Assembly (NCBI GenBank): GCA_030390025.1
Contig: JASTWF010000341.1
Coordinates: 186,001-248,000 of the forward strand
Length of the DNA: 62,000 nucleotides
Origin: Squalus acanthias
Lineage: Eukaryota
Direction: 5' to 3'
Shown here: positions 12,001-56,182 of the stretch, one piece after another
Position numbering within the stretch: position 1 is the stretch's first letter
How the letters are laid out: every line of letters starts with the position of its first letter
Program-made: the position numbers and the translations under genes
Notes under the pieces: generated by a model
Seen by the model: the letters and a program-made list of their open reading frames with translations, nothing else
The model's database searches: none
Told to the model about the DNA's origin: nothing

Positions 12001-13932
12001 CGTTAGTTTTACTGTCGATCCTCAGCTTTAGTTTTACTGTCGGTCCGCAGAATTCTGTCTTCCTGTCGATCCTCAGGATTAATTTTACTCTCGATCCTCA
12101 GAATTAGTTTTACTGTCGATCCTCAGAATTAGTTTTACTGTCGATCCTCAGCATTAGTTTTACTGTCGATCCTCAGCATTCGTTTTACTGTCTTTCCTCA
12201 GCGTTAGTTTTACTGTCGATCCTCAGCATTAGTTTTTCTGTCGATCCTCAGCATTAGTTTTACTGTCGACCCTCAGCGTTAGTTTTACTGTCGATCATCA
12301 GCGCTAGTTTTACTGTCGATCATCAGCGTTAGTTTTATTATCGATCCGCAGCATTAGTTTTACTGTCGATTCTCAGCGTTAGTTTTACTGTCGATCCTCA
12401 GCATTAGTTTTACTGTCGATCCTCAGCATTACTTTTATTGTCGATCCTCAGCATTAGTTTTACTGTCGACCCTCAGCGTTAGTTTTACTGTCGATCCTCA
12501 GCGTTAGTTTTACTGTCGATCCGCAGCATTAGTTTTACTGTCGATCCTCGGCGTTCGTTTTACTGTCGATCCTCAGCATTACTTTTACTGTCGATCCGCA
12601 GCATCAGTTTTACTGTCGTTCCTCAGCATTAGTTTTACTGTCGATCCTCAGCATTAGTTTTACTGTCGATCCTCAGCGTTTGTTTTACTGTTGATCCTCA
12701 GCATTAGTTTTACTGTCGATCCTCAGCATCAGTTTTACTGTCGTTCCTCAGCAATAGTTTTACTGTCTATCCACAGCAAAAGTTTTAATGTCGATCCGCA
12801 GCAATAGTTTTACTGTCGATCCGCAGCTTTAGTTTTACTGTCGATCGTCAGCAATAGTTTTACTGTCGATCCGCAGCATTAGTTTTACTGTCGATCCTCA
12901 GCATCAGTTTTACTGTCTATCCTCAGGATTAGTTTTACTGTCGATCCGCAGCTTTAGTTTTACTGTCGATCATCAGCAATAGTTTTACTGTCGATCCGCA
13001 GCAATAGTTTTACTGTCGATCCTCAGCATTAGATTTACTGTCGATCCTCAGCATTAGTTTTACTGTCGATCCTCACCCTTAGTTTTACTGACGATCCTCA
13101 GCATTAGTTTTACTGTCGATCCTCAGCATTAGTTTTACTGTCGATCCGCAGCATTAGTTTTACTGTCGATCCGCAGCATTAGTTTTACTGTCGATCCTCA
13201 GCATTAGTGTTACTGTCGATCCTCAGCATCAGTTTTACTGTCTATCCTCAGGATTAGTTTTACCAACGATCCTCAGCGTTAGTTTTACTGTCAATCCTCT
13301 GCATTCGTTTTACTGTCGATCCTCAGCATTCGTTTTACTGTCGATCCTCAGCGTTAGTTTTATTATCGATCCTCAGCGTTAGTTTTACTGTCGATCCGCA
13401 GCATTAGTTTTACTGTCGATTCTCAGCGTTAGTTTTACTGTCGATCCTCAGCATTAGTTTTACTGTCGATCCTCAGCATTAGTTTTACTGTCGATCCTCA
13501 GCATTGGTTTTATTGTCGATCCTCAGCATTAGTTTTACTGTCGATCCTCAGCGTTAGTTTAACTGTCGATCCTCAGCGTTAGTTTTACTGTCGATCGTCA
13601 GCATTAGTTTTACTGACGATCCTCAGCATTAGTTTTACTGTCGATCCTCAGCTTTAGTTTTACTGTCGATCCTCAGCATTAGTTTTACTGTCGATCCTCA
13701 GCATTAGTTTTACTGTCGATCCGCAGCATTAGTTTTACTGTCGATCCTCAGCATTAGTTTTACTGTCAATCCTCAGCATTAATTTTACTGTCAATCCTCA
13801 GCATTAATTTTACTGTCGATCCTCAGCATTAGTTTTACTGTCGATCCTCAGCGTTAGTTTTACTGTCTATCCTCAGCATTAGATTTACTGTCGATCCTCA
13901 GCATTAATTTTACTGTCGATCCTCAGCATTAA

Positions 13933-16900
13933 TTTTACTGTCGATCCTCAGCGTTAGTTTTACTGTCGATCCTCAGGATTAGTTTTACTGTCGATCCTCA
14001 GCGTTAGTTTTACTGTCGATCCGCAGCTTTAGTTTTACTGTCGATCCTCAGCATTAGATTTACTGTCGATCCTCAGCATTAATTTTACTGTCTATCCTCA
14101 GCATTAGATTTACTGTCGATCCTCAGCATTAGTTTTACTGTCGATCCTCAGCGTTAGTTTTACTGTCGATCCTCAGCGTTAGTTTTACTGTCGATCCGCA
14201 GCTTTAGTTTTACTGTCGGTCCGCAGAATTCTGTCTTCCTGTCGATCCTCAGGATTAATTTTACTCTCGATCCTCAGAATTAGTTTTACTGTCGATCCTC
14301 AGCATTAGTTTTACTGTCGATCATCAGCGTTAGTTTTACTGTCGATCCTCAGCGTTAGTTTTACTGTCGATCCGCAGCATTAGTTTTACTGTCGATCCTC
14401 GGCGTTCGTTTTACTGTCGATCCTCAGCATTACTTTTACTGTCGATCCGCAGCATCAGTTTTACTGTCGTTCCTCAGCATTAGTTTTACTGTCGATCCTC
14501 AGCATTAGTTTTACTGTCGATCCTCAGCGTTAGTTTTACTGTCGATCCTCAGCATTAGTTTTACTGTCGATCCTCAGCATCAGTTTTACTGTCGTTCCTC
14601 AGCGTTAGTTTTACTGCCGATCCTCAGCTTTAGTTTTACTGTCGGTCCGCAGAATTATGTTTTCCTGTCGATCCTCAGGATTAATTTTACTCTCGATCCT
14701 CAGAATTAGTTTTACTGTCGATCCTCAGCATTAATTTTAAAGTCGATCCTCAGGATTAGTTTTACTGTCGATCCTCAGCATTAATTTTACTGTCGATCCT
14801 CAGCATTAGTTTTACTGTCGATCCTCAGCATTCGTTTTACTGTCTTTCCTCAGCGTTAGTTTTACTGTCGATCCTCAGCATTAGTTTTTCTGTCGATCCT
14901 CAGCATTAGTTTTACTGTCGACCCTCAGCGTTAGTTTTACTGTCGATCATCAGCGCTAGTTTTACTGTCGATCATCAGCGTTAGTTTTATTATCGATCCG
15001 CAGCATTAGTTTTACTGTCGATTCTGAGCGTTAGTTTTACTGTCGATCCTCAGCATTAGTTTTACTGTCGATCCTCAGCATTACTTTTACTGTCGATCCT
15101 CAGCATTAGTTTTACTGTCGACCCTCAGCGTTAGTTTTACTGTCGATCATCAGCGTTAGTTTTACTGTCGATCCTCAGCGTTAGTTTTACTGTCGATCCG
15201 CAGCATTAGTTTTACTGTCGATCCTCGGCGTTCGTTTTACTGTCGATCCTCAGCATTACTTTTACTGTCGATCCGCAGCATCAGTTTTACTGTCGTTCCT
15301 CAGCATTAGTTTTACTGTCGATCCTCAGCATTAGTTTTACTGTCGATCCTCAGCGTTAGTTTTACTGTCGATCCTCAGCATTAGTTTTACTGTCGATCCT
15401 CAGCATCAGTTTTACTGTCGTTCCTCAGCAATAGTTTTACTGTCTATCCACAGCAAAAGTTTTAATGTCGATCCGCAGCAATAGTTTTACTGTCGATCCG
15501 CAGCTTTAGTTTTACTGTCGATCGTCAGCAATAGTTTTACTGTCGATCCGCAGCATTAGTTTTACTGTCGATCCTCAGCATCAGTTTTACTGTCTATCCT
15601 CAGGATTAGTTTTACTGTCGATCCGCAGCTTTAGTTTTACTGTCGATCGTCAGCAATAGTTTTACTGTCGATCCGCAGCAATAGTTTTACTGTCGATCCT
15701 CAGCATTAGATTTACTGTCGATCCTCAGCATTAGTTTTACTGTCGATCCTCACCCTTAGTTTTACTGACGATCCTCAGCATTAGTTTTACTGTCGATCCT
15801 CAGCATTAGTTTTACTGTCGATCCGCAGCATTAGTTTTACTGTCGATCCGCAGCATTAGTTTTACTGTCGATCCTCAGCATTAGTGTTACTGTCGATCCT
15901 CAGCATCAGTTTTACTGTCTATCCTCAGGATTAGTTTTACCAACGATCCTCAGCGTTAGTTTTACTGTCAATCCTCTGCATTCGTTTTACTGTCGATCCT
16001 CAGCATTCGTTTTACTGTCGATCCTCAGCGTTAGTTTTATTATCGATCCTCAGCGTTAGTTTTACTGTCGATCCGCAGCATTAGTTTTACTGTCGATTCT
16101 CAGCGTTAGTTTTACTGTCGATCCTCAGCATTAGTTTTACTGTCGATCATCAGCGTTAGTTTTACTGTCGATCCTCAGCGTTAGTTTTACTGTCGATCCG
16201 CAGCATTAGTTTTACTGTCGATCCTCGGCGTTCGTTTTACTGTCGATCCTCAGCATTACTTTTACTGTCGATCCGCAGCATCAGTTTTACTGTCGTTCCT
16301 CAGCATTAGTTTTACTGTCGATCCTCAGCATTAGTTTTACTGTCGATCCTCAGCGTTAGTTTTACTGTCGATCCTCAGCATTAGTTTTACTGTCGATCCT
16401 CAGCATCAGTTTTACTGTCGTTCCTCAGCGTTAGTTTTACTGCCGATCCTCAGCTTTAGTTTTACTGTCGGTCCGCAGAATTATGTTTTCCTGTCGATCC
16501 TCAGGATTAATTTTACTCTCGATCCTCAGAATTAGTTTTACTGTCGATCCTCAGCATTAATTTTAAAGTCGATCCTCAGGATTAGTTTTACTGTCGATCC
16601 TCAGCATTAATTTTACTGTCGATCCTCAGCATTAGTTTTACTGTCGATCCTCAGCATTCGTTTTACTGTCTTTCCTCAGCGTTAGTTTTACTGTCGATCC
16701 TCAGCATTAGTTTTTCTGTCGATCCTCAGCATTAGTTTTACTGTCGACCCTCAGCGTTAGTTTTACTGTCGATCATCAGCGCTAGTTTTACTGTCGATCA
16801 TCAGCGTTAGTTTTATTATCGATCCGCAGCATTAGTTTTACTGTCGATTCTGAGCGTTAGTTTTACTGTCGATCCTCAGCATTAGTTTTACTGTCGATCC

Positions 16901-19900
16901 TCAGCATTACTTTTACTGTCGATCCTCAGCATTAGTTTTACTGTCGACCCTCAGCGTTAGTTTTACTGTCGATCATCAGCGTTAGTTTTACTGTCGATCC
17001 TCAGCGTTAGTTTTACTGTCGATCCGCAGCATTAGTTTTACTGTCGATCCTCGGCGTTCGTTTTACTGTCGATCCTCAGCATTACTTTTACTGTCGATCC
17101 GCAGCATCAGTTTTACTGTCGTTCCTCAGCATTAGTTTTACTGTCGATCCTCAGCATTAGTTTTACTGTCGATCCTCAGCGTTAGTTTTACTGTCGATCC
17201 TCAGCATTAGTTTTACTGTCGATCCTCAGCATCAGTTTTACTGTCGTTCCTCAGCAATAGTTTTACTGTCTATCCACAGCAAAAGTTTTAATGTCGATCC
17301 GCAGCAATAGTTTTACTGTCGATCCGCAGCTTTAGTTTTACTGTCGATCGTCAGCAATAGTTTTACTGTCGATCCGCAGCATTAGTTTTACTGTCGATCC
17401 TCAGCATCAGTTTTACTGTCTATCCTCAGGATTAGTTTTACTGTCGATCCGCAGCTTTAGTTTTACTGTCGATCGTCAGCAATAGTTTTACTGTCGATCC
17501 GCAGCAATAGTTTTACTGTCGATCCTCAGCATTAGATTTACTGTCGATCCTCAGCATTAGTTTTACTGTCGATCCTCACCCTTAGTTTTACTGACGATCC
17601 TCAGCATTAGTTTTACTGTCGATCCTCAGCATTAGTTTTACTGTCGATCCGCAGCATTAGTTTTACTGTCGATCCGCAGCATTAGTTTTACTGTCGATCC
17701 TCAGCATTAGTGTTACTGTCGATCCTCAGCATCAGTTTTACTGTCTATCCTCAGGATTAGTTTTACCAACGATCCTCAGCGTTAGTTTTACTGTCAATCC
17801 TCTGCATTCGTTTTACTGTCGATCCTCAGCATTCGTTTTACTGTCGATCCTCAGCGTTAGTTTTATTATCGATCCTCAGCGTTAGTTTTACTGTCGATCC
17901 GCAGCATTAGTTTTACTGTCGATTCTCAGCGTTAGTTTTACTGTCGATCCTCAGCATTAGTTTTACTGTCGATCCTCAGCATTAGTTTTACTGTCGATCC
18001 GCAGCATTAGTTTTACTGTCGAACCTCAGCGTTAGTTTTACTGTCGATCCTCACCATTAGTTTTACTGTCGATCCTCAGCGTTAGTTTTACTGTCGATCA
18101 TCAGCGTTAGTTTTACTGTCGATCCACGGCAATAGTTTTACTGTCGATCATCAGCGTTAGTTTTACTGTCGATCCGCAGCCATACTTTTACTGTCGATCC
18201 TCAGCATTAGATTTACTGTCGATCCTCAGCGTTAGTTTTACTGTCGATCCTCAGCATTAGTTTTACTGTCGATCCGCAGCATTAGTTTTACTGTCGATCC
18301 TCAACGTTAGTTTTACTGACGATACTCAGCATTAGTTTTACTGTCGATCCGCAACATTAGTTTTACTGTCAATCCTCAGCATTAGTTTTACTGTCGATCC
18401 GCAGCATTAGTTTTATTGTCGATCCGCAGCATTAGTTTTACCAACGATCCTCGGCTTTAGTTTTACTGTCGATCCTCAGCGTTAGTTTTATTATCGATCC
18501 TCAGCGTTAGTTTTACTGTCGATCCGCAGCATTAGTTTTACTGTCGATTCTCAGCGTTAGTTTTACTGTCTATCCTCAGCATTAGTTTTACTGTCGATCC
18601 TCAGCATTAATTTTACTGTCGATCCTCAGCATTAATTTTACTGTCGATCCTCAGCGTTAGTTTTACTGTCGATCCTCAGCGTTAGTTTTACTGTCGATCC
18701 ACAGCATTAGTTTTACTGTCGATCCGCAGCGTTAGTTTTACTGTCGATCCTCAGCATTAGTTTAACTGTCGACCATCAGCGTTAGTTTTACTGTCGATCA
18801 TCAGCGCTACTTTTACTGTCGATCATCAGCGTTAGTTTTATTATCGATCCGCAGCATTAGTTTTACTGTCGATTCTCAGCGTTAGTTTTACTGTCGATCC
18901 TCAGCATTAGTTTTACTGACGATCTGCAGCATTAGTTTTACTGTCGATCCTCAGCATTACTTTTACTGTCGATCCTCAGCATTAGTTTTACTGTCGACCC
19001 TCAGCGTTAGTTTTACTGTCGATCATCAGCGTTAGTTTTATTATCGATCCTCAGCGTTAGTTTTACTGTCGATCCGCAGCATTAGTTTTACTGTCGATTC
19101 TCAGCGTTAGTTTTACTGTCGATCCTCAGCATTAGTTTTACTGTCGATCCTCAGCATTAGTTTTACTGTCGATCCGCAGCATTAGTTTTACTGTCGAACC
19201 TCAGCGCTAGTTTTACTGTCGATCCTCACCATTAGTTTTACTGTCGATCCTCAGCGTTAGTTTTACTGTCGATCATCAGCGTTAGTTTTACTGTCGATCC
19301 ACGGCAATAGTTTTACTGTCGATCATCAGCGTAAGTTTTACTGTCGATCCTCAGCGTTAGTTTTACTATCGATCCTCAGCATTAGTTTTACTGTCGATCC
19401 TCAGCATTAGTTTTACTGTCGATCCTCACCCTTAGTTTTACGATCGGTCCGCAGAATTATGTTTTCCTGTCGATCCTCAGGATTAATTTTACTCTCGATC
19501 CTCAGAATTAGTTTTACTGTCGATCCTCAGCATTAATTTTAAAGTCGATCCTCAGGATTAGTTTTACTGTCGATCCTCAGCATTAATTTTACTGTCGATC
19601 CTCAGCATTAGTTTTACTGTCGATCCTCAGCATTAGTTTTACTGTCGATCCTCAGCGTTAGTTTTACTGTCGATCCTCAGAATTAGTTTTACTGTCGATC
19701 CTCAGCATTAATTTTAAAGTCGATCCTCAGGATTAGTTTTACTGTCGATCCTCAGCATTAATTTTACTGTCGATCCTCAGCATTAGTTTTACTGTCGATC
19801 CTCAGCATTCGTTTTACTGTCTTTCCTCAGCGTTAGTTTTACTGTCGATCCACAGCATTAGTTTTACTGTCGATCCTCAGTGTTAGTTTTACTGTCGATC

Positions 19901-22900
19901 CTCAGCATTAGTTTTACTGTCGATCCTCAGCATTAGTTTTACTGTCGATCCTCAGTATTAGATTTACTGTCGATCCTCAGCATTAGATTTACTGTCGATC
20001 CTCAGCATTAGTTTTACTGTCGATCCTCAGCATTAGTTTTACTGTCGATCCTCAGCATTAGTTTTACTGACGATCTTCAGCATTAGTTTTACTGTCGATC
20101 CTCAGCGTTAGTTTTACTGTCGATGCACAGCATTAGTTTTACTGTCGATCCTCAGCATTAGTTTTACTGTCGATGCACAGCATTAGTTTTATTGTCGATC
20201 CTCAGCATTAGTTTTACTGTCGATCCTCAGCTTCAGTTTTACTGTCGATCCTCAGCGTTAGTTTTACTGACGATCCTCAGCATTAGTTTTACTGTCGATC
20301 CTCAGCGTTAGTTTTACTGTCGATCCGCAGCATTAGTTTTACTGTCGATCCGCAGCGTTAGTTTTACTGTCGATCCTCAGCTTTAGTTTTACTGTCGGTC
20401 CGCAGAATTAGTTTTACTGTCGATCCGCAGCGTTAGTTTTACTGTCGATCCTCAGCTTTAGTTTTACTGTCGGTCCGCAGAATTATGTTTTCCTGTCGAT
20501 CCTCAGGTTAATTTTACTCTCGATCCTCAGAATTAGTTTTACTGTCGATCCTCAGCATTAATTTTAAAGTCGATCCTCAGCGTTAGTTTTACTGTCGATC
20601 CTCAGCGTTAGTTTTACTGTCGATCCTCAGCATTAATTTTACTGTCGATCCTCAGCGTTAGTTTTACTGTCGATGCACAGCATTAGTTTTACTGTCGATC
20701 CTCAGCATTAGTTTTACTGTCGATGCACAGCATTAGTTTTACTGTCGATCCTCAGTATTAATTTTACAGTCGATCCTCAGCATTAATTTTACTGTCGATC
20801 CTCAGCATTAGTTTTACTGTCCATCCTCAGCATTAGTTTTACTGTCGATCCTCAGCATTAATTTTACTGTCGATCCTCAGCATTAATTTTACTGTCGAGC
20901 CTCAGCATTAATTTTCCTGTCGATCCTCAGCATTAGTTTTACTGTCGATCCTCAGCGTTAGTTTTACTGTCGATCCGCAGCATTAGTTTTACTGTCGATC
21001 CGCAGCGTTAGTTTTACTGTCGATCCTCAGCTTTAGTTTTACTGTCGGTCCGCAGAATTAGTTTTACTGTCGATCCGCAGCGTTAGTTTTACTGTCGATC
21101 CTCAGCTTTAGTTTTACTGTCGGTCCGCAGAATTATGTTTTCCTGTCGAACCTCAGGATAAATTTTACTCTCGATCCTCAGAATTAGTTTTACTGTCGAT
21201 CCTCAGCATTAATTTTAAAGTCGATGCGTAGGATTAGTTTTACTGTCGATCCTCAGCATTAATTTTACTGTCGATCCTCAGCATTAGTTTTACTGTCGAT
21301 CCTCAGCATTCGTTTTACTGTCGATCCTCAGCGTTAGTTTTACTGTCGATCCTCAGCATTAGTTTTACTGTCGATCCTCAGCATTAGTTTTACTGTCGAT
21401 CCGCAGCATTAGTTTTACTGTCGATCATCAGCGTTAGTTTTACTGTCGATCATCAGCGTTAGTTTTATTATCGATTCGCAGCATTAGTTTTACTGTCGAT
21501 TCTCAGCGTTAGTTTTACTCTCGATCCTCAGCATTAGTTTTACTGTCGATCTGCAGCATTAGTTTTACTGTCGATCCTCAGTTTTACTGTCGATCCTCAG
21601 CGTTAATTTTACTGTCGGTCCTCAGCGTTTGTTTTACTGTCGATCCGCAGTATTAGTTTAACTGTCGATCCTCAGCATAAGTTTTACTGTCAGTCGTCAG
21701 CATTAGTTTTACTGTCGATCCCCAGCTTTAGTTTCACTGTCGATCCTCAGCATTAGTTTTACTGTCGATGCGCAGCTTTAGTTTTAATGTCGATCCTCAG
21801 CGTTAGTTTCACTGTCGATCCTCAGCATTAGTTTCACTGTCGATCCTCAGCATTAGTTTTACTGTCGATGCGCAGCTTTAGTTTTACTGTCGATCCTCAG
21901 CGTTAGTTTTACTGTCGATTCTCAGCATTAGTTTTACCGTCGATCCTCAGGATTAGTTTTATTGTCGATCCTCAGCGTTAGTTTTACTGACGATCCTCAG
22001 CGTTAGTTTTACTGTCGATCCTCAGCTTCAGTTTTACTGTCGATCCTCAGCGTTAATTTTACTGTCGATCCTCAGCATTAGTTTTACTGTCGATCCACAG
22101 CATTAGTTTTACTGTCGATCCGCAGCGTTAGTTTTACTGTCGATCCTCAGCTTTAGTTTTACTGTCGGTCCGCAGAATTAGTTTTACTGTCGATCCGCAG
22201 CGTTAGTTTTACTGTCGATCCTCAGCTTTAGTTTTACTGTCGGTCCGCAGAATTATGTTTTCCTGTCGATCCTCAGATTAATTTTACTCTCGATCCTCAG
22301 AATTAGTTTTACTGTCGATCCTCAGCATTAATTTTAAAGTCGATCCTCAGCGTTAGTTTTACTGTCGATCCTCAGCGTTAGTTTTACTGTCGATCCTCAG
22401 CGTTAGTTTTACTGTCGATCCTCAGCATTAATTTTACTGTCGATCCTCAGCATTAGTTTTACTGTCGATCCTCAGTATTAATTTTACAGTCGATCCTCAG
22501 CATTAATTTTACTGTCGATCCTCAGCATTAGTTTTACTGTCCATCCTCAGCATTAGTTTTACTGTCGATCCTCAGCATTAATTTTACTGTCGATCCTCAG
22601 CATTAATTTTACTGTCGAGCCTCAGCATTAATTTTCCTGTCGATCCTCAGCATTAGTTTTACTGTCGATCCTCAGCGTTAGTTTTACTGTCGATCCACAG
22701 CATTAGTTTTACTGTCGATCCGCAGCGTTAGTTTTACTGTCGATCCTCAGCTTTAGTTTTACTGTCGGTCCGCAGAATTAGTTTTACTGTCGATCCGCAG
22801 CGTTAGTTTTACTGTCGATCCTCAGCTTTAGTTTTACTGTCGGTCCGCAGAATTAGTTTTACTGTCGATCTGCAGCGTTAGTTTTACTGTCGATCCTCAG

Positions 22901-25900
22901 CTTCAGTTTTACTGTCGGTCCGCAGAATTATGTTTTCCTGTCGAACCTCAGGATAAATTTTACTCTCGATCCTCAGAATTAGTTTTACTGTCGATCCTCA
23001 GCATTAATTTTCAAGTCGATGCGCAGGATTAGTTTTACTGTCGATCCTCAGCATTAATTTTACTGTCGATCCTCAGCATTAGTTTTACTGTCGATCCTCA
23101 GCATTCGTTTTACTGTCGATCCTCAGCGTTAGTTTTACTGTCGATCCTCAGCATTAGTTTTACTGTCGATCCTCAGCATTAGTTTTACTGTCGATCCGCA
23201 GCATTAGTTTTACTGTCGATCATCAGCGTTAGTTTTATTATCGATCCGCAGCATTAGTTTTACTGTCGATTCTCAGCGTTAGTTTTACTCTCGATCCTCA
23301 GCATTAGTTTTACTGTCGATCTGCAGCATTAGTTTTACTGTCGATCTTCAGTTTTACTGTCGATCCTCAGCGTTAATTTTACTGTCGGTCCTCAGCGTTT
23401 GTTTTACTGTCGATCCGCAGTATTAGTTTAACTGTCGATCCTCAGCATAAGTTTTACTGTCAGTCGTCAGCATTAGTTTTACTGTCGATCCCCAGCTTTA
23501 GTTTCACTGTCGATCCTCAGCATTAGTTTTACTGTCGATGCGCAGCTTTAGTTTTAATGTCGATCCTCAGCGTTAGTTTCACTGTCGATCCTCAGCGTTA
23601 GTTTCACTGTCGATCCTCAGCATTAGTTTCACTGTCGATCCTCAGCATTAGTTTTACTGTCGATGCGCAGCTTTAGTTTTAATGTCGATCCTCAGCGTTA
23701 GTTTCACTGTCGATCCTCAGCGTTAGTTTCACTGTCGATCCTCAGCATTAGTTTCACTGTCGATCCTCAGCATTAGTTTTACTGTCGATGCGCAGCTTTA
23801 GTTTTACTGTCGATCCTCAGCGTTAGTTTTACTGTCGATTCTCAGCATTAGTTTTACCGTCGATCCTCAGCATTAGTTTTACTGTCGATCCTCAGCATTA
23901 GTTTTACTGTCGATCCTCAGCATTAGTTTTACTGTCGATCCGTAGCATTCGTTTTACTGTCGATCCTCAGCATTAGTTTTACTGTCGATCCGCAGCATTA
24001 GTTTTACTGTCGATCCTCAGCATTAGTTTTACTGACGTTCCTCAACATTAGTTTTACTGACGTTCCTCAGCATTAGTTTTACTGTCGATCCTCAGCGTTA
24101 GTTTTACTCTCGTTCCTCAGCATTCGTTTTACTCTCGATCCTCAGCGTTAGTTTTACTGTCGATCCTCAGCGTTAGTTTTACTGTCGTTCCTCAGCATTA
24201 GTTTTACTGACATTCCTCAGCATTAGTTTTACTGTCGATCCTCAGCATTAGTTTTACTGTCGATCCGAAGCATTAGTTTTACTGTCGATCCGTAGCATTA
24301 GTTTTACTGTCGATCCTCAGCATCAGTTTTACTGTCGATCCACAGCATTCGTTTTACTGTCGATCCTCAGCACCAGTTTTACTGTCGATCCACAGCGTCA
24401 GTTTTACTGTCGATCCACAGCATTAGTTTTACTGTCGATCCACAGCATTAGTTTTACTGTCGATCCTCAGCATTAGTTTTACTGTCGATTCTCAGCATTC
24501 GTTTTACTGTCGATCCTCAGCATTAGTTTTACTGTCGATCCGCAGCATTAGTTTTACTGTCGATCCTCAGCTTTAGTTTTACTGACGATCCTCAGCATTA
24601 GTTTTACTGTCGATCCTCAGCATTAGTTTTACTGTCGATCCGCAGCATTAGTTTTACTGTCGATCCTCAGCGTTAGTTTTACTGTCGATCCTCAGGATTA
24701 GTTTTACTGTCGATCCTCAGCGTTAGTTTTACTGTCGATCCGCAGCTTTAGTTTTACTGTCGATCCTCAGCATTAGATTTACTGTCGATCCTCAGCATTA
24801 ATTTTACTGTCTATCCTCAGCATTAGATTTACTGTCGATCCTCAGCATTAGTTTTACTGTCGATCCTCAGCGTTAGTTTTACTGTCGATCCTCAGCGTTA
24901 GTTTTACTGTCGATCCGCAGCTTTAGTTTTACTGTCGGTCCGCAGAATTCTGTCTTCCTGTCGATCCTCAGGATTAATTTTACTCTCGATCCTCAGAATT
25001 AGTTTTACTGTCGATCCTCAGCATTAGTTTTACTGTCGATCATCAGCGTTAGTTTTACTGTCGATCCTCAGCGTTAGTTTTACTGTCGATCCGCAGCATT
25101 AGTTTTACTGTCGATCCTCGGCGTTCGTTTTACTGTCGATCCTCAGCATTACTTTTACTGTCGATCCGCAGCATCAGTTTTACTGTCGTTCCTCAGCATT
25201 AGTTTTACTGTCGATCCTCAGCATTAGTTTTACTGTCGATCCTCAGCGTTAGTTTTACTGTCGATCCTCAGCATTAGTTTTACTGTCGATCCTCAGCATC
25301 AGTTTTACTGTCGTTCCTCAGCGTTAGTTTTACTGCCGATCCTCAGCTTTAGTTTTACTGTCGGTCCGCAGAATTATGTTTTCCTGTCGATCCTCAGGAT
25401 TAATTTTACTCTCGATCCTCAGAATTAGTTTTACTGTCGATCCTCAGCATTAATTTTAAAGTCGATCCTCAGGATTAGTTTTACTGTCGATCCTCAGCAT
25501 TAATTTTACTGTCGATCCTCAGCATTAGTTTTACTGTCGATCCTCAGCATTCGTTTTACTGTCTTTCCTCAGCGTTAGTTTTACTGTCGATCCTCAGCAT
25601 TAGTTTTTCTGTCGATCCTCAGCATTAGTTTTACTGTCGACCCTCAGCGTTAGTTTTACTGTCGATCATCAGCGCTAGTTTTACTGTCGATCATCAGCGT
25701 TAGTTTTATTATCGATCCGCAGCATTAGTTTTACTGTCGATTCTGAGCGTTAGTTTTACTGTCGATCCTCAGCATTAGTTTTACTGTCGATCCTCAGCAT
25801 TACTTTTACTGTCGATCCTCAGCATTAGTTTTACTGTCGACCCTCAGCGTTAGTTTTACTGTCGATCATCAGCGTTAGTTTTACTGTCGATCCTCAGCGT

Positions 25901-28900
25901 TAGTTTTACTGTCGATCCGCAGCATTAGTTTTACTGTCGATCCTCGGCGTTCGTTTTACTGTCGATCCTCAGCATTACTTTTACTGTCGATCCGCAGCAT
26001 CAGTTTTACTGTCGTTCCTCAGCATTAGTTTTACTGTCGATCCTCAGCATTAGTTTTACTGTCGATCCTCAGCGTTAGTTTTACTGTCGATCCTCAGCAT
26101 TAGTTTTACTGTCGATCCTCAGCATCAGTTTTACTGTCGTTCCTCAGCAATAGTTTTACTGTCTATCCACAGCAAAAGTTTTAATGTCGATCCGCAGCAA
26201 TAGTTTTACTGTCGATCCGCAGCTTTAGTTTTACTGTCGATCGTCAGCAATAGTTTTACTGTCGATCCGCAGCATTAGTTTTACTGTCGATCCTCAGCAT
26301 CAGTTTTACTGTCTATCCTCAGGATTAGTTTTACTGTCGATCCGCAGCTTTAGTTTTACTGTCGATCGTCAGCAATAGTTTTACTGTCGATCCGCAGCAA
26401 TAGTTTTACTGTCGATCCTCAGCATTAGATTTACTGTCGATCCTCAGCATTAGTTTTACTGTCGATCCTCACCCTTAGTTTTACTGACGATCCTCAGCAT
26501 TAGTTTTACTGTCGATCCTCAGCATTAGTTTTACTGTCGATCCGCAGCATTAGTTTTACTGTCGATCCGCAGCATTAGTTTTACTGTCGATCCTCAGCAT
26601 TAGTGTTACTGTCGATCCTCAGCATCAGTTTTACTGTCTATCCTCAGGATTAGTTTTACCAACGATCCTCAGCGTTAGTTTTACTGTCAATCCTCTGCAT
26701 TCGTTTTACTGTCGATCCTCAGCATTCGTTTTACTGTCGATCCTCAGCGTTAGTTTTATTATCGATCCTCAGCGTTAGTTTTACTGTCGATCCGCAGCAT
26801 TAGTTTTACTGTCGATTCTCAGCGTTAGTTTTACTGTCGATCCTCAGCATTAGTTTTACTGTCGATCATCAGCGTTAGTTTTACTGTCGATCCTCAGCGT
26901 TAGTTTTACTGTCGATCCGCAGCATTAGTTTTACTGTCGATCCTCGGCGTTCGTTTTACTGTCGATCCTCAGCATTACTTTTACTGTCGATCCGCAGCAT
27001 CAGTTTTACTGTCGTTCCTCAGCATTAGTTTTACTGTCGATCCTCAGCATTAGTTTTACTGTCGATCCTCAGCGTTAGTTTTACTGTCGATCCTCAGCAT
27101 TAGTTTTACTGTCGATCCTCAGCATCAGTTTTACTGTCGTTCCTCAGCGTTAGTTTTACTGCCGATCCTCAGCTTTAGTTTTACTGTCGGTCCGCAGAAT
27201 TATGTTTTCCTGTCGATCCTCAGGATTAATTTTACTCTCGATCCTCAGAATTAGTTTTACTGTCGATCCTCAGCATTAATTTTAAAGTCGATCCTCAGGA
27301 TTAGTTTTACTGTCGATCCTCAGCATTAATTTTACTGTCGATCCTCAGCATTAGTTTTACTGTCGATCCTCAGCATTCGTTTTACTGTCTTTCCTCAGCG
27401 TTAGTTTTACTGTCGATCCTCAGCATTAGTTTTTCTGTCGATCCTCAGCATTAGTTTTACTGTCGACCCTCAGCGTTAGTTTTACTGTCGATCATCAGCG
27501 CTAGTTTTACTGTCGATCATCAGCGTTAGTTTTATTATCGATCCGCAGCATTAGTTTTACTGTCGATTCTGAGCGTTAGTTTTACTGTCGATCCTCAGCA
27601 TTAGTTTTACTGTCGATCCTCAGCATTACTTTTACTGTCGATCCTCAGCATTAGTTTTACTGTCGACCCTCAGCGTTAGTTTTACTGTCGATCATCAGCG
27701 TTAGTTTTACTGTCGATCCTCAGCGTTAGTTTTACTGTCGATCCGCAGCATTAGTTTTACTGTCGATCCTCGGCGTTCGTTTTACTGTCGATCCTCAGCA
27801 TTACTTTTACTGTCGATCCGCAGCATCAGTTTTACTGTCGTTCCTCAGCATTAGTTTTACTGTCGATCCTCAGCATTAGTTTTACTGTCGATCCTCAGCG
27901 TTAGTTTTACTGTCGATCCTCAGCATTAGTTTTACTGTCGATCCTCAGCATCAGTTTTACTGTCGTTCCTCAGCAATAGTTTTACTGTCTATCCACAGCA
28001 AAAGTTTTAATGTCGATCCGCAGCAATAGTTTTACTGTCGATCCGCAGCTTTAGTTTTACTGTCGATCGTCAGCAATAGTTTTACTGTCGATCCGCAGCA
28101 TTAGTTTTACTGTCGATCCTCAGCATCAGTTTTACTGTCTATCCTCAGGATTAGTTTTACTGTCGATCCGCAGCTTTAGTTTTACTGTCGATCGTCAGCA
28201 ATAGTTTTACTGTCGATCCGCAGCAATAGTTTTACTGTCGATCCTCAGCATTAGATTTACTGTCGATCCTCAGCATTAGTTTTACTGTCGATCCTCACCC
28301 TTAGTTTTACTGACGATCCTCAGCATTAGTTTTACTGTCGATCCTCAGCATTAGTTTTACTGTCGATCCGCAGCATTAGTTTTACTGTCGATCCGCAGCA
28401 TTAGTTTTACTGTCGATCCTCAGCATTAGTGTTACTGTCGATCCTCAGCATCAGTTTTACTGTCTATCCTCAGGATTAGTTTTACCAACGATCCTCAGCG
28501 TTAGTTTTACTGTCAATCCTCTGCATTCGTTTTACTGTCGATCCTCAGCATTCGTTTTACTGTCGATCCTCAGCGTTAGTTTTATTATCGATCCTCAGCG
28601 TTAGTTTTACTGTCGATCCGCAGCATTAGTTTTACTGTCGATTCTCAGCGTTAGTTTTACTGTCGATCCTCAGCATTAGTTTTACTGTCGATCCTCAGCA
28701 TTAGTTTTACTGTCGATCCGCAGCATTAGTTTTACTGTCGAACCTCAGCGTTAGTTTTACTGTCGATCCTCACCATTAGTTTTACTGTCGATCCTCAGCG
28801 TTAGTTTTACTGTCGATCATCAGCGTTAGTTTTACTGTCGATCCACGGCAATAGTTTTACTGTCGATCATCAGCGTTAGTTTTACTGTCGATCCGCAGCC

Positions 28901-31900
28901 ATACTTTTACTGTCGATCCTCAGCATTAGATTTACTGTCGATCCTCAGCGTTAGTTTTACTGTCGATCCTCAGCATTAGTTTTACTGTCGATCCGCAGCA
29001 TTAGTTTTACTGTCGATCCTCAACGTTAGTTTTACTGACGATACTCAGCATTAGTTTTACTGTCGATCCGCAACATTAGTTTTACTGTCAATCCTCAGCA
29101 TTAGTTTTACTGTCGATCCGCAGCATTAGTTTTATTGTCGATCCGCAGCATTAGTTTTACCAACGATCCTCGGCTTTAGTTTTACTGTCGATCCTCAGCG
29201 TTAGTTTTATTATCGATCCTCAGCGTTAGTTTTACTGTCGATCCGCAGCATTAGTTTTACTGTCGATTCTCAGCGTTAGTTTTACTGTCTATCCTCAGCA
29301 TTAGTTTTACTGTCGATCCTCAGCATTAATTTTACTGTCGATCCTCAGCATTAATTTTACTGTCGATCCTCAGCGTTAGTTTTACTGTCGATCCTCAGCG
29401 TTAGTTTTACTGTCGATCCACAGCATTAGTTTTACTGTCGATCCGCAGCGTTAGTTTTACTGTCGATCCTCAGCATTAGTTTAACTGTCGACCATCAGCG
29501 TTAGTTTTACTGTCGATCATCAGCGCTACTTTTACTGTCGATCATCAGCGTTAGTTTTATTATCGATCCGCAGCATTAGTTTTACTGTCGATTCTCAGCG
29601 TTAGTTTTACTGTCGATCCTCAGCATTAGTTTTACTGACGATCTGCAGCATTAGTTTTACTGTCGATCCTCAGCATTACTTTTACTGTCGATCCTCAGCA
29701 TTAGTTTTACTGTCGACCCTCAGCGTTAGTTTTACTGTCGATCATCAGCGTTAGTTTTATTATCGATCCTCAGCGTTAGTTTTACTGTCGATCCGCAGCA
29801 TTAGTTTTACTGTCGATTCTCAGCGTTAGTTTTACTGTCGATCCTCAGCATTAGTTTTACTGTCGATCCTCAGCATTAGTTTTACTGTCGATCCGCAGCA
29901 TTAGTTTTACTGTCGAACCTCAGCGCTAGTTTTACTGTCGATCCTCACCATTAGTTTTACTGTCGATCCTCAGCGTTAGTTTTACTGTCGATCATCAGCG
30001 TTAGTTTTACTGTCGATCCACGGCAATAGTTTTACTGTCGATCATCAGCGTAAGTTTTACTGTCGATCCTCAGCGTTAGTTTTACTATCGATCCTCAGCA
30101 TTAGTTTTACTGTCGATCCTCAGCATTAGTTTTACTGTCGATCCTCACCCTTAGTTTTACGATCGGTCCGCAGAATTATGTTTTCCTGTCGATCCTCAGG
30201 ATTAATTTTACTCTCGATCCTCAGAATTAGTTTTACTGTCGATCCTCAGCATTAATTTTAAAGTCGATCCTCAGGATTAGTTTTACTGTCGATCCTCAGC
30301 ATTAATTTTACTGTCGATCCTCAGCATTAGTTTTACTGTCGATCCTCAGCATTAGTTTTACTGTCGATCCTCAGCGTTAGTTTTACTGTCGATCCTCAGA
30401 ATTAGTTTTACTGTCGATCCTCAGCATTAATTTTAAAGTCGATCCTCAGGATTAGTTTTACTGTCGATCCTCAGCATTAATTTTACTGTCGATCCTCAGC
30501 ATTAGTTTTACTGTCGATCCTCAGCATTCGTTTTACTGTCTTTCCTCAGCGTTAGTTTTACTGTCGATCCACAGCATTAGTTTTACTGTCGATCCTCAGT
30601 GTTAGTTTTACTGTCGATCCTCAGCATTAGTTTTACTGTCGATCCTCAGCATTAGTTTTACTGTCGATCCTCAGTATTAGATTTACTGTCGATCCTCAGC
30701 ATTAGATTTACTGTCGATCCTCAGCATTAGTTTTACTGTCGATCCTCAGCATTAGTTTTACTGTCGATCCTCAGCATTAGTTTTACTGACGATCTTCAGC
30801 ATTAGTTTTACTGTCGATCCTCAGCGTTAGTTTTACTGTCGATGCACAGCATTAGTTTTACTGTCGATCCTCAGCATTAGTTTTACTGTCGATGCACAGC
30901 ATTAGTTTTATTGTCGATCCTCAGCATTAGTTTTACTGTCGATCCTCAGCTTCAGTTTTACTGTCGATCCTCAGCGTTAGTTTTACTGACGATCCTCAGC
31001 ATTAGTTTTACTGTCGATCCTCAGCGTTAGTTTTACTGTCGATCCGCAGCATTAGTTTTACTGTCGATCCGCAGCGTTAGTTTTACTGTCGATCCTCAGC
31101 TTTAGTTTTACTGTCGGTCCGCAGAATTAGTTTTACTGTCGATCCGCAGCGTTAGTTTTACTGTCGATCCTCAGCTTTAGTTTTACTGTCGGTCCGCAGA
31201 ATTATGTTTTCCTGTCGATCCTCAGGTTAATTTTACTCTCGATCCTCAGAATTAGTTTTACTGTCGATCCTCAGCATTAATTTTAAAGTCGATCCTCAGC
31301 GTTAGTTTTACTGTCGATCCTCAGCGTTAGTTTTACTGTCGATCCTCAGCATTAATTTTACTGTCGATCCTCAGCGTTAGTTTTACTGTCGATGCACAGC
31401 ATTAGTTTTACTGTCGATCCTCAGCATTAGTTTTACTGTCGATGCACAGCATTAGTTTTACTGTCGATCCTCAGTATTAATTTTACAGTCGATCCTCAGC
31501 ATTAATTTTACTGTCGATCCTCAGCATTAGTTTTACTGTCCATCCTCAGCATTAGTTTTACTGTCGATCCTCAGCATTAATTTTACTGTCGATCCTCAGC
31601 ATTAATTTTACTGTCGAGCCTCAGCATTAATTTTCCTGTCGATCCTCAGCATTAGTTTTACTGTCGATCCTCAGCGTTAGTTTTACTGTCGATCCGCAGC
31701 ATTAGTTTTACTGTCGATCCGCAGCGTTAGTTTTACTGTCGATCCTCAGCTTTAGTTTTACTGTCGGTCCGCAGAATTAGTTTTACTGTCGATCCGCAGC
31801 GTTAGTTTTACTGTCGATCCTCAGCTTTAGTTTTACTGTCGGTCCGCAGAATTATGTTTTCCTGTCGAACCTCAGGATAAATTTTACTCTCGATCCTCAG

Positions 31901-34900
31901 AATTAGTTTTACTGTCGATCCTCAGCATTAATTTTAAAGTCGATGCGTAGGATTAGTTTTACTGTCGATCCTCAGCATTAATTTTACTGTCGATCCTCAG
32001 CATTAGTTTTACTGTCGATCCTCAGCATTCGTTTTACTGTCGATCCTCAGCGTTAGTTTTACTGTCGATCCTCAGCATTAGTTTTACTGTCGATCCTCAG
32101 CATTAGTTTTACTGTCGATCCGCAGCATTAGTTTTACTGTCGATCATCAGCGTTAGTTTTACTGTCGATCATCAGCGTTAGTTTTATTATCGATTCGCAG
32201 CATTAGTTTTACTGTCGATTCTCAGCGTTAGTTTTACTCTCGATCCTCAGCATTAGTTTTACTGTCGATCTGCAGCATTAGTTTTACTGTCGATCCTCAG
32301 TTTTACTGTCGATCCTCAGCGTTAATTTTACTGTCGGTCCTCAGCGTTTGTTTTACTGTCGATCCGCAGTATTAGTTTAACTGTCGATCCTCAGCATAAG
32401 TTTTACTGTCAGTCGTCAGCATTAGTTTTACTGTCGATCCCCAGCTTTAGTTTCACTGTCGATCCTCAGCATTAGTTTTACTGTCGATGCGCAGCTTTAG
32501 TTTTAATGTCGATCCTCAGCGTTAGTTTCACTGTCGATCCTCAGCATTAGTTTCACTGTCGATCCTCAGCATTAGTTTTACTGTCGATGCGCAGCTTTAG
32601 TTTTACTGTCGATCCTCAGCGTTAGTTTTACTGTCGATTCTCAGCATTAGTTTTACCGTCGATCCTCAGGATTAGTTTTATTGTCGATCCTCAGCGTTAG
32701 TTTTACTGACGATCCTCAGCGTTAGTTTTACTGTCGATCCTCAGCTTCAGTTTTACTGTCGATCCTCAGCGTTAATTTTACTGTCGATCCTCAGCATTAG
32801 TTTTACTGTCGATCCACAGCATTAGTTTTACTGTCGATCCGCAGCGTTAGTTTTACTGTCGATCCTCAGCTTTAGTTTTACTGTCGGTCCGCAGAATTAG
32901 TTTTACTGTCGATCCGCAGCGTTAGTTTTACTGTCGATCCTCAGCTTTAGTTTTACTGTCGGTCCGCAGAATTATGTTTTCCTGTCGATCCTCAGATTAA
33001 TTTTACTCTCGATCCTCAGAATTAGTTTTACTGTCGATCCTCAGCATTAATTTTAAAGTCGATCCTCAGCGTTAGTTTTACTGTCGATCCTCAGCGTTAG
33101 TTTTACTGTCGATCCTCAGCGTTAGTTTTACTGTCGATCCTCAGCATTAATTTTACTGTCGATCCTCAGCATTAGTTTTACTGTCGATCCTCAGTATTAA
33201 TTTTACAGTCGATCCTCAGCATTAATTTTACTGTCGATCCTCAGCATTAGTTTTACTGTCCATCCTCAGCATTAGTTTTACTGTCGATCCTCAGCATTAA
33301 TTTTACTGTCGATCCTCAGCATTAATTTTACTGTCGAGCCTCAGCATTAATTTTCCTGTCGATCCTCAGCATTAGTTTTACTGTCGATCCTCAGCGTTAG
33401 TTTTACTGTCGATCCACAGCATTAGTTTTACTGTCGATCCGCAGCGTTAGTTTTACTGTCGATCCTCAGCTTTAGTTTTACTGTCGGTCCGCAGAATTAG
33501 TTTTACTGTCGATCCGCAGCGTTAGTTTTACTGTCGATCCTCAGCTTTAGTTTTACTGTCGGTCCGCAGAATTAGTTTTACTGTCGATCTGCAGCGTTAG
33601 TTTTACTGTCGATCCTCAGCTTCAGTTTTACTGTCGGTCCGCAGAATTATGTTTTCCTGTCGAACCTCAGGATAAATTTTACTCTCGATCCTCAGAATTA
33701 GTTTTACTGTCGATCCTCAGCATTAATTTTCAAGTCGATGCGCAGGATTAGTTTTACTGTCGATCCTCAGCATTAATTTTACTGTCGATCCTCAGCATTA
33801 GTTTTACTGTCGATCCTCAGCATTCGTTTTACTGTCGATCCTCAGCGTTAGTTTTACTGTCGATCCTCAGCATTAGTTTTACTGTCGATCCTCAGCATTA
33901 GTTTTACTGTCGATCCGCAGCATTAGTTTTACTGTCGATCATCAGCGTTAGTTTTATTATCGATCCGCAGCATTAGTTTTACTGTCGATTCTCAGCGTTA
34001 GTTTTACTCTCGATCCTCAGCATTAGTTTTACTGTCGATCTGCAGCATTAGTTTTACTGTCGATCTTCAGTTTTACTGTCGATCCTCAGCGTTAATTTTA
34101 CTGTCGGTCCTCAGCGTTTGTTTTACTGTCGATCCGCAGTATTAGTTTAACTGTCGATCCTCAGCATAAGTTTTACTGTCAGTCGTCAGCATTAGTTTTA
34201 CTGTCGATCCCCAGCTTTAGTTTCACTGTCGATCCTCAGCATTAGTTTTACTGTCGATGCGCAGCTTTAGTTTTAATGTCGATCCTCAGCGTTAGTTTCA
34301 CTGTCGATCCTCAGCGTTAGTTTCACTGTCGATCCTCAGCATTAGTTTCACTGTCGATCCTCAGCATTAGTTTTACTGTCGATGCGCAGCTTTAGTTTTA
34401 ATGTCGATCCTCAGCGTTAGTTTCACTGTCGATCCTCAGCGTTAGTTTCACTGTCGATCCTCAGCATTAGTTTCACTGTCGATCCTCAGCATTAGTTTTA
34501 CTGTCGATGCGCAGCTTTAGTTTTACTGTCGATCCTCAGCGTTAGTTTTACTGTCGATTCTCAGCATTAGTTTTACCGTCGATCCTCAGCATTAGTTTTA
34601 CTGTCGATCCTCAGCATTAGTTTTACTGTCGATCCTCAGCATTAGTTTTACTGTCGATCCGTAGCATTCGTTTTACTGTCGATCCTCAGCATTAGTTTTA
34701 CTGTCGATCCGCAGCATTAGTTTTACTGTCGATCCTCAGCATTAGTTTTACTGACGTTCCTCAACATTAGTTTTACTGACGTTCCTCAGCATTAGTTTTA
34801 CTGTCGATCCTCAGCGTTAGTTTTACTCTCGTTCCTCAGCATTCGTTTTACTCTCGATCCTCAGCGTTAGTTTTACTGTCGATCCTCAGCGTTAGTTTTA

Positions 34901-35390
34901 CTGTCGTTCCTCAGCATTAGTTTTACTGACATTCCTCAGCATTAGTTTTACTGTCGATCCTCAGCATTAGTTTTACTGTCGATCCGAAGCATTAGTTTTA
35001 CTGTCGATCCGTAGCATTAGTTTTACTGTCGATCCTCAGCATCAGTTTTACTGTCGATCCACAGCATTCGTTTTACTGTCGATCCTCAGCACCAGTTTTA
35101 CTGTCGATCCACAGCGTCAGTTTTACTGTCGATCCACAGCATTAGTTTTACTGTCGATCCACAGCATTAGTTTTACTGTCGATCCTCAGCATTAGTTTTA
35201 CTGTCGATTCTCAGCATTCGTTTTACTGTCGATCCTCAGCATTAGTTTTACTGTCGATCCGCAGCATTAGTTTTACTGTCGATCCTCAGCTTTAGTTTTA
35301 CTGACGATCCTCAGCATTAGTTTTACTGTCGATCCTCAGCATTAGTTTTACTGTCGATCCGCAGCATTAGTTTTACTGTCGATCCTCAGC
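13933..35390. repeat. 10,719-bp tandem duplication within the satellite (copy 1 ~13933-24651, copy 2 ~24652-35370)
   Basis: Rare markers recur at a constant offset of 10,719: CGATCGGTCC at 19441/30160, CAGTCGTCAG at 21691/32410, CATTCCTCAG at 24211/34930. Confidence 0.9.
14290..17960. repeat. 1,826-bp higher-order tandem duplication within the satellite (repeated again inside the second 10.7-kb copy)
   Basis: Markers TGCCGAT at 14615/16441 and CAGCAAAAGTTTTAATG at 15451/17277 share an offset of 1,826 (73 units + 1 bp). Confidence 0.85.
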
Positions 35391-35925
35391 ATTAGTTTTA
35401 CTGTCGATCCTCAGCATTAGTTTTACTGTCGATCCGTAGCATTAGTTTTACTGTCGATCCGCAGCATTAGTTTTACTGTCGATCCACAGCGTCAGTTTTA
35501 CTGTCGATCCGCAGCATTAATTTTACTGTCGATCCTCAGCGTTAGTTTTACTGACGATCCTCAGCATTAGTTTTACTGTCGATCCTCAGCATTAATTTTA
35601 CTGACGATCCTCAGCATTCGTTTTACTGTCGATCCTCAGCATTAGTTTTACTGTCGATCCGCAGCATTAGTTTTACTGTCGATCCTCAGCTTTAGTTTTA
35701 CTGTCAATCCTCAGCATTAGTTTTACTGACAATCCACAGCATTAATTTTACTGTCGAACCGCAGCATTAGTTTTACTGTCGATCCTCAGCATTAGTTTTA
35801 CTGTCGATCCTCAGCATTAGTTTTACTGACGATCCTCAGCATTAGTTTTTCTGTCGATCCTCAGCATTAGTTTTACTGACGATCCTCAGCATTAGTTTTA
35901 CTGTCGATCCTCAGCGCCAGTTTTA

Positions 35926-36088
35926 TGGCTGGGTGGCCAGTTTAAAATCTGCATCATTTTGTCAATGGATGAAATTACTTTAAACTCATATTATCATCAT
36001 CGGTAATAATGTTATGTTTTGCAACAGCCATTTCCGTTTTTGCCAAAGTAACATATCTCCTCTAGAAAGGTTAATGTCGAGACAAAGC
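35926..36088 (-). pseudogene. Pseudo-exon ALSRH*PF*RRYVTLAKTEMAVAKHNIITDDDNMSLK*FHPLTK*CRF*TGHPAI, continuing into the satellite as KLALRIDSKTN
   Basis: tcttctttcag acceptor after a putative 72-nt intron; no donor before the array begins. Confidence 0.55.
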
Positions 36089-36160
36089 CTGAAAGAAGAT
36101 GCATTTGGCAGAGAGTGTTCGTGGAACAATAGGTCTTGTAGAAAAGCCAAGGTGCTCCAC

Positions 36161-36391
36161 CTGAAGCAATTTTTCGTTGACCAGCACTCCGTCTAAAAAC
36201 AGTCTTTGCTTCACGGCCATTCTTGCAGCATGATAAGGATCAAACTCCGAGGTAGTCATCTACAACAATGTCTTCAATGCTTGACATTTCCTGTTTCGAG
36301 CTTTTGCTTTGCTTATCCACATCTCCAGCAGCTTTTTTTTTAATCTAGGCTCATCATCAGAGAAGCACAGGGCACACTGTATCCCTACTAC
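36161..36391 (-). pseudogene. Pseudo-exon VVGIQCALCFSDDEPRLKKKLLEMWISKAKARNRKCQALKTLL*MTTSEFDPYHAARMAVKQRLFLDGVLVNEKLLQ
   Basis: Pyrimidine tract with a mutated acceptor (ctcctg), gtggag donor; overlaps ORF 36071..36259. Confidence 0.7.
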
Positions 36392-40319: not shown

Positions 40320-40550
40320 CTAAGGCAAACTAGCAAGTGTGGCAGCTAACGTGATAACACTGGCAGTCAACACATCAACCTGCTTAGACCCAAAAGTGTT
40401 CTTTTAAGAAGTGAGTCTCATCAGTGGTATATCTTAAAAAAAAAAGTTGGAGGATTCTGATTGACTCTGTCATGTTTTTGCTTCTCCCTTACTCTTGCTT
40501 TTTTTTTAAAAAGAGTGTTTTTGTTTAAATAGTGATTCTTATGATCTCAC

Positions 40551-40760
40551 CAGAAGGCTTGGCATGGAGGAGGTACTCAGGCTGACAGTGTGAGGGAGCT
40601 GAATTAATAAACTGCAGGGGAACTCATTAACCCTTTGTATCCTTTCAATTAAACTCCCTCAACACTGTCAGCGACAGGGACTCTTCCAACCCAGTTCCTC
40701 TAATTATGTCGTCATCAGAAACTAATGCCCAAAGAATTAATTTTTCTTTTAGAAAGGCAG
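40551..40760 (-). pseudogene. Pseudo-exon AFLKEKLILWALVSDDDIIRGTGLEESLSLTVLREFN*KDTKG**VPLQFINSAPSHCQPEYLLHAKPS
   Basis: tttatttcag acceptor, gtgaga donor, 210 nt, phase 1->1. Confidence 0.75.
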
Positions 40761-43156: not shown

Positions 43157-43276
43157 CATTTGCTCCATCTCTCTCCAAGAGCTCTCCAGCACAGCCATTG
43201 GTCCAAACCACCAGTCACTCTCCTTTGCAGAACGTTTCCCTTGAAACCAGAATTGTCGCAACCACTCAAACTCCAC
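43157..43276 (-). pseudogene. Pseudo-exon [40 protein letters not shown]
   Basis: ttgatgcag acceptor, gtatgt donor, 120 nt, phase 0->0, stop-free and Trp-rich; lies inside ORF 43067..43345. Confidence 0.8.
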
Positions 43277-54916: not shown

Positions 54917-56182
54917 TGCTGTTTCTAAATTTAACTAGCTATTTGCAGATAAAGAGACTATCTATCTGGTCCTTCAGCCTCTAACACAGGACAGTATGTT
55001 AACCAATATAAGCCATCATAGCTTAAAATCATTTTAATTTCATGATTTACATCTGGCCTTAAGACAACCTTGTCTTATAGCCTGAAAGAAATGTTTTATT
55101 TTTTGTGAATTATCTGGACATGTTGCCAGACAACTGAGACACAACTATAGCCTAGTACATTTAACTCCAAACAATTTCAATTTTATTTTGTTGCAGGGAC
55201 AGTTAGTAATTAACATAACATTAATCATGGAAAAATGCAGTGAACTGTTTTTACCTCATTGTGAATCTCTTCTGTTTGTCTCACAAAAGCAAGTTCCAAT
55301 GAAGTCAGGGAGGAAATGCCCAACACTGGATCCTTTTGCAGGTTTTTCGTGGCTACGTCACAGCGTCCAAAAATATAGTCCAAGGTACCAAGTGAACACT
55401 GTAAAACACATAGTTTGAATGTATATTAACTAGGTAGCCACATACAACCTACTAGGGGTCTGAGAAAAACATGGAATTCATTTGTAATTTGGTTGTTCTG
55501 GTTCTCCTGATTTCAAAATGGATTACATTGTAGAATCATCATTTGTCCAGAAGACATTATTACTGCATACACAGAAATCATTATCTGGAAAAATATTACA
55601 TCAGAAAACCAAAACTTGGAAGACATGAAACATCTTCAAGAATAAAACCAGCATATGAACTCTGGCAATTTTTTTGTAATTCAGTATTATGTGTTATGCA
55701 CAAGTAATGTTATTTGTTCTGTTTGATCATGAGCATTAAAACTGTTCAGATCGAAACATTGCTATTTAATTTTAAATACTTACATTATTTTACAAACTTT
55801 TTTGTTCATGTACTAAGATGTGCTGCTGAATTCAGTTAAATATATAACTAGTATGTTATGAAATATTATCCCACTTGTGTGTCTGACATTAAATCGTGCA
55901 TGTGTAAATTTTCTCTTACTGAACATCGAGACCGAAGCCATTGTTTTCGGCCTCTGCCATAATTTCCTGTTTCCATCTACCTCTCTGACCATTTACTCAG
56001 CCTGAATCAGAAATTAAGGCTGTGCAAAACCCTGGCGTACTGTTTAATCCAGAGTTGAGTTTCAAATCTCACATCCTATCAATCACCAAAAAGGCTTAAT
56101 TTCATCCACTTCTGCAACATCACCCACCTCCAATCTCACCACAAAAACTCTTATCCACACTTTTGCCACCTTTAAACTTGAT

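Follow-up and report, generated by a model that had tools for sequence, protein, structure and literature searches.

We consider it very probable that the array of 25-bp units in the Squalus acanthias DNA studied here is a single-locus satellite, that one old MITE, now in two halves, flanks it in intron 7 of the FTO gene, and that it grew in place from the second arm of this element. The stretch analysed, here called the window, comprises 62,000 nucleotides and corresponds to positions 186,001-248,000 of contig C2683, and the genome searched was the 3.7 Gb assembly. The array extends from 137,065 to 221,906 of this contig and forms a long head-to-tail run of ~3,360 similar units over ~85 kb (84.8 kb), of which the right-hand ~36 kb falls within the window, ending at about 35,906-35,915. 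An earlier, sequence-only reading had given its length as more than 36 kb, which holds, as the array reaches contig position 137,065. Units deviate by 3-7% from the commonest unit, neighbouring units are 90% matches, and units beginning with C are evenly spread along the array.

At the right-hand edge the minus strand reads HPAIKLALRIDSKTNA straight into the array, with no linker between flank and array. The sequence-only reading had described this junction correctly, including the 7-mer TAAAACT at 35919-35925 and 35894-35900, the GCGCCAG of the junction unit and the junction-like variants at 35090, 35115 and 35490, and it had taken the flank for a coding exon in which the satellite was born. 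The junction letters proved instead to be an inverted MITE arm within FTO intron 7; those once read as HPAIKLALRI belong to its outer part, and at the far end of the array, where the rest of the exon was expected, the rest of the MITE is found (Table 1).

Evidence for the parent element was obtained in several steps. Before any profile was built, a 41-bp inverted repeat was seen to link contig positions 136,915-136,955 with window positions 35,912-35,952 (32 of 41 identical, E 0.002). A degenerate pattern of the arm gave at least 810 matches genome-wide and none for the reversed control. From these arms 30 copies were fetched; a second inverted arm was present within 330 nt in 19 of the 30, and copies with two arms measured 108-185 bp. 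The parent family, as judged from its copies, is a palindromic MITE of ~185 bp that is short, dispersed and present in high copy number, and carries terminal inverted repeats whose ends begin GGGGTAGA. A profile of the arm, built from copies that had been retrieved with a pattern based on the present locus, matched at contig 136,913-136,993 (plus strand), at contig 137,062-136,998 (minus strand) and at window 35,951-35,903 (minus strand), with E values of 2e-11, 5e-10 and 1.5e-9, respectively, in 42 kb of flank. When profile positions 36 onward, which are independent of the pattern, were used alone, the best match at the array was weak (E 0.03) and the right junction was unmatched. The order along the locus is first arm 1-81, second arm 83 to 18, array, and second arm 52 to 4.

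MITEs of the PIF/Harbinger type have GGG-type termini, duplicate 3 bp of their target and are matched by an autonomous partner. Of 15 copies of the present family with two intact ends, 3 show by eye an exact duplication of 3 bp at their ends and 5 more match at two of the three bases, which suggests a 3-bp target duplication for the family; none is visible at the FTO copy. A further decayed arm of the same family (E 2e-5) is located at contig 133,132-133,213, at a distance of 3.7 kb from the parent copy. What looked like short duplications at C3, C22 and C23 are ordinary single arms and were rejected.

Table 1. Coordinates of the satellite array, its parent MITE and exons of the host gene
Feature	Location	Strand	Remarks
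Array, right part	window 1..35906	.	25-bp units; monomer corresponds to MITE arm 29-53
Near-exact tandem duplication within array	window 13933..35391	.	10,719 bp; 9,551 exact 150-mers at this offset
Outer part of MITE second arm with terminal inverted repeat	window 35907..35954	-	profile 4-52 against 35,951-35,903
Rest of MITE (first arm, centre, duplicated 33-bp unit)	contig C2683 136,913-137,064		beyond window
Minor alternative FTO last exon	window 35955..36384	-	acceptor AG 36,386-36,385 after pyrimidine tract
FTO exon 7	window 43157..43276	-	PF12934, E 6e-13
FTO exon preceding exon 7, 3' end	window 55255..55286	-	mapped for this part only
FTO exon 8	contig C2683 124,525-124,644
FTO N-terminal exons	contig C2683 255-276 kb
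FTO last exon	on C6

The monomer is homologous to part of this dispersed element, with 19 of 25 bases identical to the arm, and the remnants at both ends are in register with it, as arm positions ~18-52 are present at either end of the array. Because the two flanks are the halves of one ~185-bp element and the monomer is confined to the locus, birth of the satellite in place, as the earlier reading had also proposed, is supported. Both array ends have a 33-bp unit with a common 21-bp core; the terminal 33-mers are identical at 24 of 33 positions, and six of the mismatches represent three CpG sites whose decay ran in opposite directions. Genome-wide, the exact 33-bp duplication junction has two matches, both at this locus, in its two haplotypes. 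Also, the monomer and both remnants have a C at arm position 41 that occurs in none of the 30 family arms, and an A at position 44 that is found in 5 of the 30. Position 44 has the family base in the first four far-end units but the derived base in both remnants, indicating that the order of events was not simple.

Column counts place the two copies of an 8-bp direct repeat in the arm at 18-25 and 51-58, 33 bp apart. We infer that slippage or unequal exchange between the copies of this repeat would have produced the 33-bp tandem duplication, perhaps with the aid of a hairpin formed by the palindrome, that a slip shorter by 8 bp would have given the 25-bp unit, in an order relative to the 33-bp step that is not fixed, and that repeated unequal crossing-over of kilobase blocks may then have extended the array to ~85 kb, its length still changing. 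As microhomology, the 8-bp direct repeat is likelier than the TAAAACT pair between which slippage had been postulated. That postulate is circular, since the parent arm has the 7-mer once and the second TAAAACT, being part of the last array unit, is a product of the array and not its cause. An enrichment of CACCAG/CGTCAG-type words near the edge, noticed earlier, is real in that three of six lie in the last 0.9 kb, but the events are few, and two further of the six are copies made by the 10,719-bp internal duplication.

This large duplication is due either to a recent unequal exchange or to an assembly artefact. The array also contains exact internal duplications of 1.2-15 kb, and offsets between the haplotypes rise stepwise to ~16 kb across 30 kb of array, one step having copied an 880-bp insertion. 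Exact internal duplications and stepwise-growing offsets together indicate that the array expanded by block exchange; assembly error may contribute, and it could account for part of the length difference between haplotypes. The C2683 copy of the array carries one such insertion (contig 142,308-143,185), an element of ~880 bp whose inverted ends are of the GGGGTA type and which probably has a target duplication of 3 bp, and the C6 haplotype has two copies after an array duplication of ~4.9 kb.

The earlier reading had proposed mapping the 25-mer genome-wide. All 4,264 one-mismatch matches of a 20-mer (2,795 + 1,469) are at this locus, on two haplotypes, so that with one mismatch allowed there is no array elsewhere, and all 946 exact 40-mer matches in the genome are at C2683 and C6:42.66-42.70 Mb. 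The C6 copy was considered as a second, separate array and rejected, being the other haplotype with 99-99.6% identity over ~33 kb of flank. In this haplotype, which C2683 overlaps over C6:42.66-42.74 Mb, the sequence stops at an N gap inside the array and the chromosome scaffold is broken there, while FTO exon 7 and the N-terminal exons are found only on the unplaced contig C2683. The array explains the local assembly break, with upstream FTO exons on an unplaced contig and a chromosome scaffold halting at the array gap. The suggestion that the satellite might be centromeric is not borne out: instead of several chromosomes or megabase arrays, all matches in this assembly, from which collapsed arrays may be missing, fall at a single intragenic locus with the open FTO exons 7 and 8 on either side, and nothing supports a centromere.

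An alternative origin would be that the tandem unit arose in another MITE copy or elsewhere and was imported by transposition, gene conversion or repair. A period search detected a 32-bp array at C5:67,232-113,826 (~930 core-word matches, interrupted and partly inverted) whose unit matches MITE arm positions ~23-53 (80 profile matches, E up to 1e-4) and differs, by eye, mostly at CpG-type positions. No ends of a parent MITE were found at the edges of this C5 array, showing that arm-derived repeats can stand apart from their parent, as import would have it. However, the 25-mer does not occur outside the FTO locus, the duplication junction is private to this locus, the monomer has the rare base common to both remnants, and the C5 unit differs in length and in its derived bases. 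Import is for these reasons highly improbable, and growth in place from the second arm remains the preferred explanation. A related family could be the source of the C5 32-mer. Ahead of this array, a 35-bp array of 16 kb occupies C5:50,814-66,797, and copies related to the ~880-bp element, which is thereby present in both satellites, are located at C5 ~76.3-77.1 kb and from 80.5 kb. Tentatively, and with a probability somewhat short of even, one 33-bp interval of a single shark MITE family may be a recurrent satellite nursery that gave rise independently to the 25-bp FTO array and to the 32-bp array near the start of another chromosome, the FTO array being a complete and datable birth record with whole parent, first duplication junction and array-free outgroup. 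If this is true, the first steps of satellite formation would be directly testable across sharks.

The host gene FTO is encoded on the minus strand, and its exon numbers presumably follow those of the human gene. Exon 7 in the window is 95% identical to the exons of Heptranchias and Pristiophorus. As exons 7 and 8, both open, are located on either side of the array, the array resides in intron 7. The length of this intron is 104.5 kb, and most likely the array stretched it from about 20 kb, which amounts to a fivefold intron expansion inside a conserved gene.

Near the array lies a minor alternative last exon whose start is at 36,384. In an X18 contig from organism G (34 substitutions in 439 letters) it is spliced to FTO exon 7 at this position with GT-AG borders. 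X18 is an RNA-type run, and none of the listed runs is recorded as RNA; contigs of run X1 cross the acceptor unspliced. One of 73 FTO isoforms, isoform X6 of the horn shark (P0010, XP_067905571.1), ends in the peptide of the alternative exon, with 30 of 30 aligned residues identical. In the window, the frame set by exon 7 reaches a stop at 36,342-36,340 after 14 codons, and the frame equivalent to that of the horn shark stops at 36,242-36,240. The exon starts ~470 bp from the array and its stops precede the junction by 320-420 nt, so the junction is likely 3' UTR in the minor isoform and intron in the main one. Positions 36,240-36,384 of the window match the horn shark X6 tail at 30 of 30 residues although they contain a stop and a one-base shift, a hint that the alternative exon is conserved as DNA rather than as protein.

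Other parts of the window show further features. Between 35,950 and 43,500 (~7.5 kb) there is no repeat match in the 370 kb compared, which is unusual next to LINE-rich flanks; a short repeat near 40,540-40,610 in aligned contigs is the sole exception. The stretches 49,793-51,685 and 56,723-61,819 presumably contain fragments of LINE reverse transcriptases, among them an open reading frame of 479 aa at 59,373-60,812, and a further open reading frame at 58,261-58,722 we take to be Myb/SANT-like, resembling Harbinger accessory proteins.

The existence of the spliced alternative exon, together with the RNA of a relative that continues from it toward the junction and a HPAIK frame that stays free of stops for 14 codons across the junction, would speak for the earlier proposal that a protein-coding exon gave birth to the satellite, the protein being one that contains GHPAIKLALRIG. 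The frame that exon 7 imposes on the alternative exon nevertheless ends 320-420 nt before the array, and 6 stops interrupt the HPAIKLALRI frame within 155-160 codons. In control windows of 469 bp from the flank, a frame with at most 6 stops was found in 21 of 59, and an ORF of at least 75 aa, the longest here, in 10 of 59. No family was found for the HPAIKLALRI frame in Pfam and no homologue by phmmer among 1.84 billion proteins; a protein word search confirmed none of 417 candidates, and a search for paralogues in the own genome returned only the query itself. Another frame of the same stretch gave a best E value of 3.3 against the PDB, and a 62-aa open piece reached at best 0.88 in a protein atlas, with no family. 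The words HPAIK, PAIKL and IKLAL are missing from all 73 FTO isoforms examined. The seed of the satellite is thus not found within the translated frame of a real protein, and its letters are those of a transposon arm, so a coding-exon origin is largely refuted and retains a minimal probability.

Contigs from related sharks, taken from 4 of the 24 listed runs, allow the array to be placed in time. In organisms A (1 change in 911), B (28 in 7,620) and C (106 in ~4,720), unique contigs run into array units at the junction. The spliced X18 contig of organism G contains the MITE terminal repeat and runs on unbroken for 709 letters past the junction, 30 of which were read; no satellite contig was placed from this run, a weak negative for an RNA-type run. 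Within the limit of the 30 of 709 letters read, this continuation and the lack of satellite contigs in G suggest that the element was there before the array. The birth of the array seems to be bracketed by relatives that are about 0.4%, 2% and 8% diverged.

Presence of the array at this junction in three organisms that are up to ~2% diverged, inside a conserved gene and in what is probably the 3' UTR of an alternative last exon, might be taken as a sign that it is retained for a function, be it as a centromere-like domain or by adjusting FTO splicing or neighbouring long-range enhancers. We regard retention for function as unlikely: the array is a single locus, its length differs between haplotypes, it has accepted an 880-bp insertion, and the frame of the alternative exon is not conserved, given the stop and one-base shift relative to the horn shark. 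Persistence over slow shark divergence presumably needs no selection. Most likely the array is a neutral passenger, removed from the main FTO transcript by splicing.

The earliest stages of a satellite can seldom be seen, because its parent decays or its arrays spread. At the FTO locus both parent halves are still present, as are the first duplication junction and bases specific to this copy. A literature search, with most subscription papers outside its scope, returned nothing on this shark element or array. Satellites of MITE origin are already published for other animals, and the shark array, whose kind of origin is thus known, is a well-preserved example. Such MITE-derived satellites, including Xstir from Xmix (Hikosaka and Kawahara 2004) and miDNA4 (Scalvenzi and Pollet) in Xenopus, as well as repeat expansion driven by microhomology, are described in the available portions of PMC12628747 and PMC9659126. 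As far as those portions go, the Xenopus cases resemble the shark case in that internal or inverted-repeat sequence of a vertebrate MITE became a tandem array, that short direct-repeat microhomologies are invoked and that the array can stay between the ends of the element. There, the repeat is present in many element copies or is a captured pre-existing repeat, whereas the shark array is found in one copy, was cut from the arm itself, measures 85 kb and lies inside a gene.

Single-locus minisatellite arrays born in retroelements are generally much shorter than the shark array. Single-locus minisatellites in transposons comprise mouse Ms6-hm and Hm-2 in MaLR LTRs, a B1-derived VNTR family and Alu-derived minisatellites (PMC9659126, in the sections available). 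In these, according to the same sections, a short stretch of a dispersed repeat likewise expanded at a specific locus with the parent still flanking it, but the parents are retroelements, whereas the shark parent is a palindromic DNA element with a readable two-step history from 33 to 25 bp. In the foldback transposon Tetris, the arms reportedly already contain tandem units. Tetris gave rise to the TIR-220 satellite of Drosophila virilis (PMC4079207, in the part available). As described there, Tetris and the shark element agree in that the satellite unit came from the inverted-repeat region of a DNA transposon, and they differ in that the arm of the shark MITE has the unit once.
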